This document shows positions 914-17,095 of a stretch of DNA of 64,000 nt, in pieces. The first letter of the stretch is position 1. Each line of letters opens with the position of its first letter. The notes under the pieces were generated by a model, which had not been told where the DNA came from, did no database searches, and worked only from the letters and a program-made list of their open reading frames with translations. The DNA comes from a virus, in IMG/VR virus record IMGVR_UViG_3300044991_002272. One strand, 5' to 3'. A program made the position numbers and the translations under genes.

Positions 914-942
914 ACTATACCCTGTAAACAGGGTTGTGTCAA
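914..942 (-). promoter_or_regulatory. sigma70-type promoter with palindrome in spacer
   Basis: TTGACA(942-937)-N17-TATAGT(919-914); ACCCTG-TTTA-CAGGGT inverted repeat at 934-919. Confidence 0.7.
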
Positions 943-1208
943 AAATGTCGCAGCTTGATTTCAGCAATCAATTCTTGGAAACTGTCATCTTTCAAATCAA
1001 GAGGAAAGCCTTGCAGTCGGTTATTGTAGATTGGCAGCGTGTATCTAGTGTTCTCTACTTCAAAAAAGATTACAAACTTGTCATTTACTACGTCTTGAGC
1101 TATATCAATGTTCTGAGCCGAGACTTCTGCAATGATCTCGTAGATCAAGGGGCTTAACCAACGATATGTTTGATAGCTGATGTATTGTGCATTTATTTGA
1201 GTAGTCAC
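939..1208 (-). CDS. hypothetical protein (89 aa)
   Basis: GTG start preceded by AGGAGA SD; fits gene spacing. Confidence 0.6.
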   Translation of the reverse strand: MTTQINAQYISYQTYRWLSPLIYEIIAEVSAQNIDIAQDVVNDKFVIFFEVENTRYTLPIYNNRLQGFPLDLKDDSFQELIAEIKLRHF

Positions 1209-1418
1209 AGGATCTCCTTTGTATCACACATGATGCGATTTTAAGTTTGCGGAAGAGATCCTTTGTGGTGGGCACGGATTTGGATGTGGAATTGAACCAC
1301 TGGTTTTGATAAACAAAACGTTATCCAAAGGTTTGCTGAACCAAATCCTCAAGCCCGTAAACAGAATGCTGTTTTTGCACTTTTCCAATTGCATAAACTT
1401 TGCTGTAAGCATTCTTCC
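1209..1418 (-). ncRNA. candidate structured leader RNA with three repeated stem + TWCMGCAAAS units
   Basis: Three perfect 8-bp stems (1415-1408/1370-1363; 1348-1341/1283-1276; 1262-1255/1216-1209), each 5' strand followed directly by TACAGCAAAG, TTCAGCAAAC or TTCCGCAAAC. Confidence 0.7.
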
Positions 1419-1423
1419 TTTTA

Positions 1424-1452
1424 AGGATATATGACAAATAGTGTTGTGTCAA
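1424..1452 (-). promoter_or_regulatory. sigma70-type promoter driving the structured leader
   Basis: TTGACA(1452-1447)-N17-TATCCT(1429-1424). Confidence 0.6.
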
Positions 1453-2273
1453 ATAGCAATTTCAATTTCCACTGGAGTCCAACCAAGGTTTTCACCAGGA
1501 TAGCCTCGAGCGTTGTTGATGTAGCGAACACCAGTCAGCACCCGGTCCTGACGATCATGCGTGTGACCAAAGCACCAAGCCCGAATGTTTGAGTTGGTGA
1601 TGGGTTCCAAGAGTGTGTTTGCATAACTGCCATTTAGCATAACCCACTTGGGGTTTGGATTATACTTCAGCAGTGCTCGATTTGGTGCATGATGCGTCAG
1701 TACCACCACTGGGTGTGCTGAGTTGGTTACAGTGTTTTGGATATACTCAGCATCCGCTTTTGCAGAGTCTACAATTGCTTGCACCTTGTATTCTGTTCCC
1801 CACTGGATATAGCGAGCATCATTCATGTAATGTAGGTAAGCTGAGGATTGCTGCTCAAAGTCAAATGGGCTACCAGCTTGGAAATCATGCCAACCAGTAG
1901 CACCCACAAACTTCACACCGTTGACCACAACACTACCTCGATGCAGAAATGAGACATTATGTGCTTTGTTGTATCGGCTGTAGTGGTCGTAGATTTCCTC
2001 AACAGTGCGCGGATAGGGATACTGAGCGTCAAACTCTGGGTCACTCAGTCGAGTGGAATGAAATCCTAGGTTATAGAAGTCGTGATTTCCAGCCACCCAA
2101 ATTACATGTTCAAATCGCTGACCAGCTTCACGCAGCCACCGGCTTCCAGCGCGAACATCATTTTCAATGTCGCCACACACCACAAGTGGAGTGGCAGAGT
2201 CAACCTCGTCAAGAAGCTGCCAATCCCACCCACTGTGGTCAATGTGAATGTCAGAGATGAGGGCAAATTTCAT
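1449..2273 (-). CDS. calcineurin-like metallophosphoesterase
   Basis: Motifs SDIH, GD, GNHD, HHAP, FGHTH. Confidence 0.92.
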   Translation of the reverse strand: MKFALISDIHIDHSGWDWQLLDEVDSATPLVVCGDIENDVRAGSRWLREAGQRFEHVIWVAGNHDFYNLGFHSTRLSDPEFDAQYPYPRTVEEIYDHYSRYNKAHNVSFLHRGSVVVNGVKFVGATGWHDFQAGSPFDFEQQSSAYLHYMNDARYIQWGTEYKVQAIVDSAKADAEYIQNTVTNSAHPVVVLTHHAPNRALLKYNPNPKWVMLNGSYANTLLEPITNSNIRAWCFGHTHDRQDRVLTGVRYINNARGYPGENLGWTPVEIEIAI

Positions 2274-2530: not shown

Positions 2531-3100
2531 CTACACAATACCTAGAGACTCAAGCCATGTCCAGTCTTGGTCTCGAATATTGATTTCAGTAGAGATGTTA
2601 GCAGTCATAAGCTCTTCACCAATAGCTGTCTGCCTGCGACGCAGTGTGACCAGCTGTGTGTTGAACTTCTCAATGTCGGTAAGGCTGAACACACCAACAG
2701 AAAAGCTTTCGGTGATTCGGTAAGAGCTTTTCTCATTGGCAACCGAGATGCTTTTGGCACGCTCTGCCAGGTGTGTGCTGCTGGGAACAGGAGTGCTCTT
2801 CACCAGCCGGGAGAACCGCGAAATCTGAGCAGCTACTACAGCCTGCTCACATAGCAGTTTACTAACACTGCACTTTACATTGGCTGCACCCACTTGCTCT
2901 CGGATGTTTGCGAGTGTTGACTCAAGACGATCAATCTCATCAATTGCACGCATTTGCGCACCACGAGCAATTGCCAGCATCTCATCATTTACTGACCAAA
3001 GTTCCATAGTTAGTTCGCCAGTAAGCTGTGATTGACGCTCACTGATAGCAGCTCGAATGCTGTTTTGCACAGCAGCAGCCTTGCGCAGATTCAATTTCAT
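2531..3100 (-). CDS. hypothetical helical/coiled-coil phage protein
   Basis: ORF; start MKLNLRKAAA at 3100 chosen from SD-like AGGGA and the promoter position. Confidence 0.7.
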   Translation of the reverse strand: MKLNLRKAAAVQNSIRAAISERQSQLTGELTMELWSVNDEMLAIARGAQMRAIDEIDRLESTLANIREQVGAANVKCSVSKLLCEQAVVAAQISRFSRLVKSTPVPSSTHLAERAKSISVANEKSSYRITESFSVGVFSLTDIEKFNTQLVTLRRRQTAIGEELMTANISTEINIRDQDWTWLESLGIV

Positions 3101-3133
3101 CTCGTTGTCCCTATCAGCGTTTTGTTGTAGCAA

Positions 3134-6112: not shown

Positions 6113-8421
6113 CAGAGGTGACTGAAGTTGGGTGTGTTTTGACCCAATTTTTTGACAGCCTTGCGCCAAGTGTATTCATTATCACTTATGAAAAACACAT
6201 TCCTTTTGTGGGCTTTCCACATTGTCAAGAATTGTTTCCAGTTTTGAGAATCATCCACGATGTCACTGTCACTAAAGATCATAATATTGAATCCTTCCGC
6301 AGCAGCAGCACTGAGCTGACTTGCCATGGAACCGCTAAACAGCGTGGCACCAGTGCCATGCTGTTGCAGCACATTGTTCCATCCTTTTATTTGTTTGTTT
6401 TTGTCCACAGGTTGACTCAATTGACTTAGGTTGGCGATAGGAGCGTAATAATTTTGCCCTTGATTTACAACAAAGTTTTCATGATCTCCAGCGAAAAACA
6501 TAACACCAAAAGGATAATCCACTTTGCCCAATTGTTTCAACAATGTTTCTGCTTCTTTCAAAGCTTGTGGCACAGCAGCCCACATGCTGCCTGAAGTGTC
6601 AAAAACAAACAACACTTTGTTAACAGGAACAGGACGCTTGACTTCACCGGGTTTGATTGCTGCCGCGCCCAGTTTGGCTGCTATGGGTGCGCCAGTAATG
6701 TTTCTTCGGCTGGGTTTGGTATAACTGGTGTCAATAGCCAATTGGCTGCTGGAAACCATTTTCCTAATCAAAGCTTTCCAGTTCATTTTAGGAGTAATAT
6801 CTTCCACACGTTTTTTGGCAGTGCCTAATGTCAAGTCACCACTGGCTCTAGATCCAGATGTACTCTGTTGTTCAGGTGAAGGAGGAGGCGGCGAATCCCG
6901 TTCTTCACGATTTTCCAATTTGTCTTTCAACTTCTCGTGAATTTCATCAGGAGTTGGTCCATAGACTTTTTTAGGTTTTTTACCTGCCTTTTCGCCTGGC
7001 TTTTTTTCTTTTTCTTCGCTAGGAGGCGATGGCGGTGGTGGAGGTGGAGGTGGTTCGCCTTCCATTTGAGTTTGTGGTGGAGGCGGAGTATCAGAGGGAG
7101 GAGCAGGAGGTGTAGGCGGTTGCGAACCTGGGTCCTTATAAGGTTGCATCCAAGTTACGTCATCAGATTTCCAACGCCCTTCCATCAAGACTCGTTTTTG
7201 GCGGCTTTCCGTTAAATTGCCTCGAGCTACACCAGTTCCTTTGGGGTAGTTCAATTTTTGTGTGGCTTGGTCAGGTGTCAAGATTTGTGTGTCAAAAGAA
7301 CCATCAGGATCAATTTTTGTGACTTCACCATAGGATCCATCTGGTAAGCGTACAACGTCTCCCACACTGGCTTTGTAAGGCACTTTGATTACAGGTGCAT
7401 CAGGACCTTTGGGTTGGGGTGGCAGTTTGTTGGGTTCTTCATCAATTTCTGCCATACCTTCCCAAGTTTTTCTCAAATGGGGTGGCAGCTTTTTCAACTC
7501 ATCGTGAACCAATTGGGCCATTTCGCTATAGCTGCTTTGCCGGTCACTATTGATGTGATCGCTGAACAAGCCTATTGGCAACTGTTGGTAATTGTTTTTG
7601 ACTAAGTCGTAATTGCTACGGAAATCGCTTGCCCAGTTGTGTATTTTGTGACTGAACTCTGGCATTTGTTTGCCATAATTGAAGTCACCCCAGGCAAAGT
7701 GCATGTATTCGTGCATAATGAGAAACTCCACATACACATATGCATCTGGAATAGATCCGCCATTGCTTTGATATTTCTTGCCTTCGCCTTGGGCACCTTC
7801 AATTACAGCCCAGTCCATGAGATTTTGCATGAAATGAGTATTGAAAACAAAGTCTCCACGTTCTGTAGCACAGGCAGTTTTCACACCATTGAACTTTTTG
7901 AACTCTGGCAGATCGCTAGGAATCAAAATGGGATGAACTTTCCAGATTCTGCGAATTGGGTCAGCAGGTTGTTTCAAAGGGCGGAACATAGGATGCTCTT
8001 GCTGAACCATTTGAGCCAGTTTCAAAAACGTTGTGGGATCAAACTGAACCAATTGTGGATTTGGACGATTGGTATTGTGCCGTACTGACGAAACTAGATC
8101 AAACACCGCATTCTCAGCAGCATTGTGTGCAATTGTTTCATACAATATAGGACTATATTTTTTGATCTCTTCAATTTCTGCCATTTTTTTCTTAACATCA
8201 CGAATGATAATTGCCACAGGTACACCTGTGACTTCACTTGCATGTTGAATTACTTCTTGAATATGAGGATCTTGTAGAGAACTCTTTTTGAAGGGCGTTT
8301 CGCCCATTTCGCGTGCACGCATAGTCCAAGCCTCAGTAACCCTTGTTCTGGCGGTTACTGAGGTCTTGGTATCCAAAGCCAAAAGTGTTTTGGCTAAATT
8401 GCTCTTGACAGAAAATGCCAT
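6112..8421 (-). CDS. DUF2201-like Zn-metallopeptidase + Pro-rich linker + VWA domain protein
   Basis: HEYMH (HExxH), poly-Pro linker, MIDAS FDTSGSM..T..SDSD. Confidence 0.85.
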   Translation of the reverse strand: MAFSVKSNLAKTLLALDTKTSVTARTRVTEAWTMRAREMGETPFKKSSLQDPHIQEVIQHASEVTGVPVAIIIRDVKKKMAEIEEIKKYSPILYETIAHNAAENAVFDLVSSVRHNTNRPNPQLVQFDPTTFLKLAQMVQQEHPMFRPLKQPADPIRRIWKVHPILIPSDLPEFKKFNGVKTACATERGDFVFNTHFMQNLMDWAVIEGAQGEGKKYQSNGGSIPDAYVYVEFLIMHEYMHFAWGDFNYGKQMPEFSHKIHNWASDFRSNYDLVKNNYQQLPIGLFSDHINSDRQSSYSEMAQLVHDELKKLPPHLRKTWEGMAEIDEEPNKLPPQPKGPDAPVIKVPYKASVGDVVRLPDGSYGEVTKIDPDGSFDTQILTPDQATQKLNYPKGTGVARGNLTESRQKRVLMEGRWKSDDVTWMQPYKDPGSQPPTPPAPPSDTPPPPQTQMEGEPPPPPPPPSPPSEEKEKKPGEKAGKKPKKVYGPTPDEIHEKLKDKLENREERDSPPPPSPEQQSTSGSRASGDLTLGTAKKRVEDITPKMNWKALIRKMVSSSQLAIDTSYTKPSRRNITGAPIAAKLGAAAIKPGEVKRPVPVNKVLFVFDTSGSMWAAVPQALKEAETLLKQLGKVDYPFGVMFFAGDHENFVVNQGQNYYAPIANLSQLSQPVDKNKQIKGWNNVLQQHGTGATLFSGSMASQLSAAAAEGFNIMIFSDSDIVDDSQNWKQFLTMWKAHKRNVFFISDNEYTWRKAVKKLGQNTPNFSHL

Positions 8422-15553: not shown

Positions 15554-15821
15554 AAAAGTGCAACCGCTTCTGTTCCAAGGAGGGTTGCCCTCCCGCTGAG
15601 ACTATGCGGCTATTAGACCGGTAGACTCAAATGCAACGTTGTTGTCGTTAGCATTTGTACGTTTAGAACTGTTCCCATCTCTGGGCGGCCATATCTCACC
15701 GAATGCCTCCTTCAACCCTTACTGCCTGCAATCGATCCTATTTCATCCCCGTTTGGTGGAGATGCGGAAGCACTGCCCTCCCGGTCTTGCATAGCCTATT
15801 TGATTGCTATCAACAGCATCA
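15554..15821 (-). ncRNA. ssrA: two-piece (circularly permuted) tmRNA
   Basis: Order: T-arm CGGGAG-GGCAGTG-CTTCCG, 3' acceptor strand CATCTCC-ACCA (15764-15754), AAC, then 5' strand GGGGATG (15750-15744) with G3.U70; tag ORF 15652-15602 = ANDNNVAFESTGLIAA*. Confidence 0.93.
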
Positions 15822-15827
15822 CTTCCT

Positions 15828-15855
15828 AGTATATCAGGTATTCTTCAGTTGTCAA
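15828..15855 (-). promoter_or_regulatory. sigma70 promoter of tmRNA
   Basis: TTGACA-N16-TATACT with extended -10 TG. Confidence 0.8.
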
Positions 15856-15858
15856 CCA

Positions 15859-16698
15859 TTAGGTTGGTGGTGTGCCAAATTGTGCCACGGGTGACCCCTG
15901 TTGTGCTGCGGCAAGACAGGGATTCACTCCGGAAACACTGCGACTGAAGCCAGATGCAAATCCAGATGTTAATGCTGTTGTGATATTTTGTGTTTCGCGA
16001 GCTACTGCTCCTGTAACTTGGCTTATACCAGCGCCAATGGTGCCTAGCAAGCTGCTGACCCCACTTATGGCGCCAGTGAGTACTCCCACAGCACTCCTTA
16101 CAACTCCAGCAGCAGCTTGTACAACAGCAGAAATGCCACCCACAACTGCCCCAATCAAGCCAGAAATGGCAGAGGTTATAGCCCCAATTATGCGTGCAGG
16201 GATACTTACAAGAGCTCCTACAAATTGGCCTATAGCACTAGTAATAGATCCCAATGTGTCGTTGTATCGGCCTTGTATGGTTCCTATGTAATCACCAACA
16301 GTAGCACACCTACTGGGATCTTGTGCTCTACCTGGTTGAAAAAAGTCATTTATTGCCCGAAATATTCGCGTACCGTCATCCACAATCCTGTCTCTATGAC
16401 TTGCCAACAGTGTGCCAAAGCCGCCTATTTGGCCAACAGCTTGCAATGGTCCCAAGCTCTGTTGCACTGCCCTCTGAGCGTCAGGATCATTGGCTGCGGC
16501 TGCTTGTGCAGCTTGTATAGCATCATTTATAGCTACTACTTGAGGTTGATTAGCATCTTCGTTAATCTGTCTAACCAATCGATCATAGGCCGGATTGACT
16601 CGAGGTGGTGGTAGATCCTCAATTTGTATACTCGCTATTTCATTAGGGGTTGCTATGACATTGAAGGCCACATACCCGCCGTCTCGCTCACCAGCCAT
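15859..16698 (-). CDS. Gly/Ala/Ile-rich hypothetical protein, probably late/virion
   Basis: 279-aa ORF; GGAGA SD; TTAAATA at 16727-16721. Confidence 0.7.
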   Translation of the reverse strand: MAGERDGGYVAFNVIATPNEIASIQIEDLPPPRVNPAYDRLVRQINEDANQPQVVAINDAIQAAQAAAANDPDAQRAVQQSLGPLQAVGQIGGFGTLLASHRDRIVDDGTRIFRAINDFFQPGRAQDPSRCATVGDYIGTIQGRYNDTLGSITSAIGQFVGALVSIPARIIGAITSAISGLIGAVVGGISAVVQAAAGVVRSAVGVLTGAISGVSSLLGTIGAGISQVTGAVARETQNITTALTSGFASGFSRSVSGVNPCLAAAQQGSPVAQFGTPPT

Positions 16699-17026: not shown

Positions 17027-17095
17027 AGGTTTCCTTTGGTATTTCTTGTAATATACCTGATCACCCAACGTCGTGTCAAAACGTTGGGTGTCTGA

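Follow-up and report, generated by a model that had tools for sequence, protein, structure and literature searches.

What occupies the 240-nucleotide (nt) gap between a metallophosphoesterase gene and an 89-codon open reading frame (ORF) at one end of the viral record IMGVR_UViG_3300044991_002272? In the 64,000-nt stretch of DNA analysed here, hereafter the window, all genes at this end lie on the minus strand according to the ORF list, and window coordinates below refer to that strand throughout. The gap is the seat of three RNA units, and the gene for a DUF2828 protein starts 326 nt downstream of them on the same strand. The initial annotation had taken the region for a leader RNA that controls translation and that is possibly bound by the DUF2828 protein. 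We instead favour, with a probability of about 0.7, three tandem small non-coding RNA modules transcribed from a promoter-like site (P1), acting as Y-RNA-like partners of a Ro60-like DUF2828 protein.

Each unit is closed by a perfect 8-base-pair (bp) stem (3/3 units) with a constant motif, TWCMGCAAAS, directly behind the 5' strand, and the coordinates of all three agree with those originally given (Table 1). In the 64 kb the motif has only three occurrences, clustered in 163 nt of one strand. A fixed register, with A at -8, G at -7 and U at -4 before the motif, is fully kept by units 1 and 3, and unit 2 has G for A at -8 together with a compensating C opposite. Folded alone, each unit adopts its closing stem, with z = -1.9, -3.2 and -3.5 for units 1, 2 and 3, and folding of the whole region gives z = -3.0. 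Inside the stems lies what we call the cargo. That of unit 1 is a 27-nt hairpin (1397-1371), plain and without likeness to transfer RNA (tRNA), and GUUU (1362-1359) follows the 3' strand. The 28-nt interior of unit 3 holds a cargo hairpin (1239-1223) of 5 bp with the 7-nt loop AUCAUGU, and the 47-nt interior of unit 2 comprises a hairpin (1319-1303) and, just ahead of the 3' strand, the T-loop-like hairpin GTGG-TTCAATT-CCAC (1300-1286), which had been recognised from the start and is indeed present. Fold prediction adds an outer helix that encloses unit 2, both strands of which are invariant in relatives.

Upstream of the units, the proposed sigma-70 promoter and its untranslated region of about 210 nt find support in P1, from which transcription is predicted to start at about G1417, 209 nt ahead of the GTG start codon at 1208. 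Sites of the form TTGACAC-N15-17-TATNNT number three in the window against 0.10 expected, all three on the minus strand, and two of them, P1 and P2, flank the 89-aa ORF. The -35 box of P1 overlaps the TGA stop of the metallophosphoesterase (metallophosphatase) gene, and that of P2, a site conserved in relatives, likewise overlaps the TGA with which the 89-aa gene ends.

Relatives with the same gene order were retrieved via the DUF2828 protein, and two of them, L012 and L014, with a DUF2828 protein 77% identical to that of the window, were used for comparison. Of the DNA in this locus, the 210-nt RNA stretch is conserved best, with 90-92% identity versus 58-60% for the promoter stretch, about 64% for the 89-aa gene, 71% for DUF2828 and 77% for the metallophosphatase gene. 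The invariance begins at alignment column 44, corresponding to position 1417 and hence to the predicted transcription start, and thus it is probable that the 5' end of the first RNA is set by initiation itself. As judged from these alignments, the 210-nt stretch is under strong purifying selection as RNA.

The units belong to a wider family, for which we coin the name handle RNAs; it corresponds to no Rfam family and is defined by R1, a covariance model trained on 39 short units. A scan for stems with T.C.GCAA behind them, run over 80 viral DUF2828 loci, recovered 144 gene-strand units against 27 on the opposite strand; those with long stems lay nearly all on the gene strand, mostly a short way upstream of DUF2828. 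The consensus of 98 non-redundant units reads U-rich flank, A-G-R-W-U-N-N-N, U-W-C-M-G-C-A-A, variable interior, complement, G-U-U. The handle is thus a helix of 7-8 bp that joins the 5' and 3' ends, semi-conserved at its base (A-G-R-W-U with A-W-Y-C-U) and freely variable at its top, followed right after the 5' strand by the unpaired U-W-C-M-G-C-A-A, and an A-rich run usually precedes the 3' strand. Run on 74 viral DUF2828 loci, R1 returned 129 matches at E ≤ 1, every one of them on the gene strand (129/129) and most ending 10-90 nt before the start codon. At E ≤ 0.01 a match is present in at least 55 of the 74 loci, many of which are not in the training set. In the window, units 1 and 3, both training members, score 33.1 and 42.5 bits, and unit 2, with its long cargo, was not found by the model. 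Bacterial and metagenome-assembled-genome loci, where DUF2828 is 31-46% identical, contributed a further 33 matches (E ≤ 0.1) in about 25 of 74 loci, again exclusively on the gene strand (33/33). The RNA family exists, and it is linked to DUF2828 by position and strand.

The handle helix moreover covaries across the family. RNAalifold predicts the same 7-bp helix unaided, with two pairs invariant and the other five of seven showing two-sided changes in 5 to 24 of the 39 sequences; as the units were picked for pairing, these statistics are circular, and only a sequence-anchored test is unbiased. In that test, the motif was located 415 times on the gene strand, and 140 of these occurrences had a perfect 7-bp partner at most 125 nt away, versus 59 ± 7 in a control with swapped 5' strands, and in the subset with the AG..T signature 87/140 were paired versus 26.5 ± 4.3 in the swaps. 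Recurrence and covariation near DUF2828 homologs, which the initial annotation had set as its own check, are accordingly both found, and its claim of covarying stems around a constant unpaired motif holds for the family as a whole.

Some family members stand inside tRNA arrays, and others downstream of a DUF2828 gene or as far as about 100 kb from one. Two complete phage records of 225 and 233 kb, with no copy beside DUF2828, gave two strong matches each in a whole-record search, and these sit at the head of a tRNA cluster about 10 kb from DUF2828; the whole records searched hold two to four copies each. Members in tRNA arrays, downstream or far from DUF2828 behave as independent small-RNA modules, and given these locations translational control cannot be the family's function. 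The notion of a translation-controlling leader as the main role is therefore not supported, also because the gene behind the units here is not DUF2828, which has P2 as a promoter-like site of its own.

Two observations concern the surroundings of DUF2828 in other contigs. In many freshwater phage contigs (L071, L072, L077, L088, L090 and others) DUF2828 stands within same-strand arrays of 15-25 tRNA genes, where handle RNAs fill some of the inter-tRNA gaps. In the viral contig L034, a Polynucleobacter-1 RNA (RF01718, 83.2 bits) is located at 6303-6447 (+), about 2 kb downstream of DUF2828.

The cargo, variable as it is, repeatedly resembles parts of tRNA. A T-loop signature occurs in 20 of 36 long units of relatives, where an estimated 0.2 or so would occur by chance, and several long units have a T-arm, a closed acceptor-like stem and a D-arm, in the order of the YrlA RNAs discussed below. 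Among the short units, the cargo is an anticodon-arm-like hairpin, defined by a 5-bp stem, a loop of 7 nt, a U in the second loop position and a purine in the sixth, in 16 of 26 cases versus 1.3 in shuffles, and half of these loops (8 of 16) read C-U-N-N-N-A-A, the anticodon-loop form. Within the window, unit 2 with its T-arm-like hairpin has a counterpart of the same layout in L022 and gives a weak tRNA-Sec match (19.7 bits) via its stem and T-arm. The loop of unit 3 has the anticodon-arm form, the U at position 2 being lost in L012. ARAGORN detected no tRNA in the window.

On the protein side, the window ends within the DUF2828 gene, and the near-identical IMG/VR contig L001 completes it, yielding a 469-aa protein with DUF2828 and DUF7788. 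The near-identical contig (L001-L004) is not the window's own, its metallophosphatase gene being 94.8% identical. The AlphaFold model of the 469-aa protein (predicted local distance difference test score 79, predicted template modelling score 0.70) gives the protein the Ro60 fold: all 13 matches in the PDB at E ≤ 0.001 are Ro60/TROVE structures, including the Ro60 of Thermus phage phiLo, Deinococcus Rsr, and Xenopus and human Ro60. These alignments run the full length, with about 500 columns and template modelling scores of 0.45-0.57, and isolated von Willebrand factor A (vWA) domains follow far behind. The relation to the TROVE/vWA architecture that was first suggested from the letters alone is thereby supported at the level of the model. 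Residues D-x-S-x-S, T and D of the metal ion-dependent adhesion site are invariant in the alignment, and PHROG 850 labels DUF2828 an 'RNA-binding protein'. Homologs number in the thousands in metagenomes and are present in 710 cultured-phage records, carriers including Felix O1-like, mycobacteriophage cluster L, Listeria, Staphylococcus, Campylobacter and Vibrio phages.

We propose that transcription from P1 would yield the three handle RNA modules in tandem, and that these would be cut out as separate molecules. The handle would then most likely serve as the docking site for the Ro60-like DUF2828 protein, paralleling the terminal module of Y RNAs on Ro60, and the cargo, by analogy with Y RNAs, would tether or present something to another factor. 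The role of such a particle is probably tRNA or RNA surveillance or repair during infection. The DUF2828 protein had been named as a possible binder already, and both its Ro60-like model and the way the handle follows DUF2828 genes on the same strand make it the likely one. Since unit 3 shares bases with both the ribosome-binding site and the start region of the 89-aa gene, its folding, binding or cleavage would compete with translation of that gene and may lower it, a candidate local extra at most.

Several points weigh against this proposal. About a quarter of the viral DUF2828 loci are without an R1 match at E ≤ 0.01 within 3 kb, and the RNAalifold statistics are circular, as stated. The known Ro60-binding motif is absent, with no CGAA in 1209-1417, so that the case for binding is one of linkage. 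The units adjoin the 89-aa gene and not DUF2828, and the 89-aa protein could be the true partner. Finally, no terminator or evident processing site was seen between the units and the 89-aa ORF, and without either the units may stay in an mRNA leader.

Such a leader could act purely in cis, if protein-bound units locked stem 3 over the ribosome-binding site and the GTG, shutting off the 89-aa gene and perhaps downstream genes. The overlap claimed at the outset is real: the 3' strand of stem 3 holds three of the six bases of AAGGAG, and the GTG comes directly after the stem. No terminator intervenes before the ORF, and the arrangement is retained in relatives down to 77% DUF2828 identity. We nevertheless consider a cis-acting leader unlikely. 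Family members lie between tRNA genes, after DUF2828 genes and far from start codons, and in the majority of loci 10-25 nt separate the last unit from the DUF2828 start, whose ribosome-binding site stays uncovered, while in the window DUF2828 has P2. The relatives keep the GTG and stem 3, but the ribosome-binding site becomes AGAGAG in L012 with the stem unchanged; thus, selection appears to act on the stem and not on the ribosome-binding site. Overlap of the two is seen in this phage lineage only, and the combination expected of a cis-regulatory leader, namely a fixed 5' untranslated position with the ribosome-binding site inside the structure, was not found across homologs.

It is quite unlikely, in our estimate, that another partner binds the handle, be it the 89-aa protein, a host tRNA-processing enzyme, Hfq, a host Ro60 or some other phage protein, with DUF2828 a mere neighbour. 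The 89-aa ORF is the nearest gene here, the units in the tRNA arrays of many phages would make tRNA enzymes plausible readers, and the canonical Ro60-binding motif is missing. On the other hand, homologs of the 89-aa protein occur only in the closest relatives among all loci examined, whereas the handle accompanies DUF2828 in phages of unrelated types and at identities as low as about 31%. That the units are punctuation elements, serving as ribonuclease processing sites or stabilisers in long phage transcripts with no dedicated protein, appears very improbable. Their placement between tRNAs and genes in polycistronic regions and their conserved U-rich 5' flanks and G-U-U 3' tails would suit such elements, but an unpaired 8-nt motif that hardly varies and cargo in the shape of tRNA parts exceed the needs of a cleavage site, and the copies are few per record and tied to DUF2828 genomes. 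A DNA-level feature, with the repeats serving for protein binding or recombination, is scarcely credible: the stems do form perfect inverted repeats, but the strand bias is absolute in both the viral and the bacterial sets, G-U pairs are tolerated, the arms lie 37-57 nt apart and the motif is conserved on one strand only.

Table 1. Features of the locus, with window coordinates unless a contig is named
Feature	Position	Strand	Details
DUF2828 + DUF7788 (vWA) gene, first 294 codons	2..883	-	Pfam; remainder beyond the window edge
Promoter-like site P2	914..942	-	TTGACA(C), 17 nt, TATAGT; upstream of DUF2828; score 11/12
89-aa gene, GTG start	939..1208	-	directly behind the units; no Pfam or PHROG match
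Translation start region of the 89-aa gene	1206..1219	-	ribosome-binding site AAGGAG 1219-1214, start codon GTG 1208-1206; overlap 3' strand and tail of unit 3
Unit 3, short handle RNA	1209..1262	-	5' strand AGGATCTC 1262-1255; motif TTCCGCAAAC 1254-1245; 3' strand GAGATCCT 1216-1209
Outer helix enclosing unit 2	1270..1356	-	GGGC 1356-1353 / GCCC 1273-1270; fold prediction
Unit 2, handle RNA with tRNA-like cargo	1276..1348	-	5' strand GGATTTGG 1348-1341; motif TTCAGCAAAC 1340-1331; 3' strand CCAAATCC 1283-1276
Unit 1, short handle RNA	1363..1415	-	5' strand AGAATGCT 1415-1408; motif TACAGCAAAG 1407-1398; 3' strand AGCATTCT 1370-1363
Promoter-like site P1	1424..1452	-	TTGACA(C) 1452-1447, 17-nt spacer, TATCCT 1429-1424; score 10/12
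Metallophosphoesterase gene	1449..2273	-	PHROG 1649; upstream of the RNA units
Third promoter-like site, extended type	17050-17079	-	TTGACAC pattern scan
Metallophosphoesterase near DUF2828 in 14 further loci	L020, L028-L031, L036, L038, L040-L044, L054, L078		

Regarding the neighbouring genes, the 89-aa ORF shares 55% identity and 71% positives with its ortholog in L012, a level of protein conservation that marks it as a genuine coding sequence, although neither Pfam nor PHROG contains a matching family. The metallophosphoesterase has a homolog at most 3 kb from DUF2828 in 14 further, more distant loci, and may be an RNA end-healing partner; combined with the tRNA setting, this neighbour invites the conjecture of RNA end-healing or of a tRNA-centred conflict. 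In L001 the DUF2828 gene is followed by genes for a DNA methyltransferase, Hsp70 and a dual-specificity phosphatase. CheckV rates this 71-kb contig as 17% complete, and the phage is thus probably very large. No match to the locus was returned by blastn against GenBank phages, and the locus is absent from G001, the nearest virus record compared.

Further along the window, a permuted two-piece transfer-messenger RNA (tmRNA) gene is present at 15557-15869 (-), with 76.5 bits to RF04321 and 68.8 bits to RF01849, and permuted tmRNAs are near the DUF2828 gene also in the related loci L050 and L089. Two genes upstream of the RNAs is a conserved gene of about 189-200 aa (window 2531-3133 (-); L009 1284-1853), for which Pfam and PHROG gave no match.

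If the RNAs are partners of the DUF2828 protein, phages would have a class of small RNA genes that is missing from current annotation, and cargo in the form of tRNA parts (T-arm, anticodon-arm and permuted tRNA mimics) would point to a role in conflicts over tRNA between phages and bacterial defence. The window adds a clean case: its promoter is well defined, transcription is predicted to start where the first RNA has its 5' end, and the last RNA, unusually, overlaps a translation start.

How do these RNAs compare with known ones? At gathering thresholds, Rfam recovers only the permuted tmRNA in the window, leaving the units uncovered, and in 20 related loci it finds nothing beyond tRNAs, tmRNAs and a single Polynucleobacter-1 RNA; congruent with the first impression that no named family applies, none reaches its threshold over the units. 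We found no Rfam family and no description of handle RNAs in the literature searched on DUF2828, Ro60, YrlA and phages; the papers retrieved for DUF2828 were unrelated, and those retrieved for Ro60, YrlA and phages deal with TROVE-type systems only. A riboswitch (glutamine, preQ1 or similar) was rejected on account of the missing Rfam match, the variable interiors and a position that is not fixed to a gene. The T5-family anti-retron protein Rad, considered for its location in a tRNA region, was dropped as a candidate, being a 189-aa TOPRIM-type protein unrelated to DUF2828.

By sequence signature, the nearest family is the Dictyostelium Class I RNA (RF01414), which we treat as a lead and not as membership. 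It is the best Rfam match for units 1 (21.5 bits) and 3 (15.8 bits), against a gathering score of 41.5, and it is likewise the best match for three short units of relatives, reaching 32-35 bits (best 35.2) with E = 0.007-0.035 for 64.5 kb scanned. Class I RNAs measure 42-65 nt and consist of a short end-joining helix with a variable interior, as do the short handle units. Their 11-nt motif CCUUACAGCAA, which follows the 5' strand, has U3, C6, C9, A10 and A11 nearly invariant; unit 1 (CUUACAGCAA) matches it in 10 of 11 letters and meets all of these positions, and units 2 and 3 keep C6, C9, A10 and A11 but not U3. At their 5' end Class I RNAs read (A)AG, with the G paired to the C of a 3' CUGU, and units 1 and 3 read AAG...CUGU, unit 1 displaying the entire Class I order of AAG, stem, motif, variable cargo, A-run, stem and CUGU. 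The register of stem and motif is however one base off from that of the handle units, and Class I RNAs are eukaryotic, with the Dictyostelium upstream sequence element (DUSE) promoter about 60 nt upstream, whereas the units are on a phage contig with a sigma-70-type promoter. The published direct binder of Class I RNA is Rnp1A, a protein with an RNA recognition motif. No Class I RNAs were found in the non-dictyostelid genomes searched, a set without phages (Kjellin et al. 2021, PMC7919456). DDB_G0281243, on whose domains we found nothing, is among four proteins pulled down with DdR-21, one of the Class I RNAs (bioRxiv 10.1101/2020.04.05.026054). Convergence or chance is a more likely source of the likeness than common descent. 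That handle and Class I RNAs form one family, by descent or transfer, docking a Ro60-like DUF2828-type protein is distinctly improbable; if true, Class I RNAs would be a eukaryotic branch of a Y-RNA-like system.

A further parallel is offered by Mycobacterium phage Faith1 (cluster L), where gp55, annotated 'Ro-like RNA binding protein', consists of DUF2828 and DUF7788. The 369-nt gap after gp55 (L182 2930-3200) contains, by eye, three handle-type units and then a terminator, the RNAs being unannotated in the record, and the middle unit comprises a T-arm, an acceptor-like hairpin and a D-arm. These units share the layout UGG...stem, UA(A)CAGCAA, stem...CCAGU, but differ in the base of the handle stem, UGG/CCA and not AGG/CCU, and in lying downstream of the gene. 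R1 scores one of the three, weakly (14.6 bits).

By mechanism, the nearest system is Ro60 with its Y RNAs. Bacterial and phage Ro60 genes have Y RNAs encoded adjacently on the same strand (PMC4201824, PMC12135203), and Thermus phage phiLo encodes Yrl1 and Yrl2 (PMC12135203). YrlA has the order T-arm, closed acceptor stem, D-arm, and a Ro-binding motif GNCGAA(N)G / GGUCCGA (Chen et al. 2014, PMC4201824). The units are not members of YrlA (RF02553), as they lack the Ro-binding motif and fall far short of the Rfam threshold: the YrlA model has no match in the window at E ≤ 10, where unit 2 has the T-arm-like hairpin only, and it reaches 39.9 bits (E = 2.7e-5) and 31.7 bits in units of two relatives against a threshold of 69. 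The protein here contains the Pfam domains DUF2828 and DUF7788 and not TROVE, the handle carries U-W-C-M-GCAA in place of GNCGAA / GGUCCGA, and many members are far shorter than YrlA, at about 55 nt, with just a hairpin as cargo. As with Ro60 and Y RNAs, a ring-and-vWA protein of predicted Ro60 fold has several small RNA genes beside its own on the same strand, each RNA is closed by an end-joining helix whose 5' strand adjoins a conserved unpaired motif, and the interiors imitate tRNA, in relatives in the YrlA order. A Ro60-like/Y-like RNA system of this kind is apparently undescribed, and if the RNAs are indeed partners of the protein, the DUF2828 family would have a likely role as a second, divergent branch of the Ro60/Y-RNA particle.
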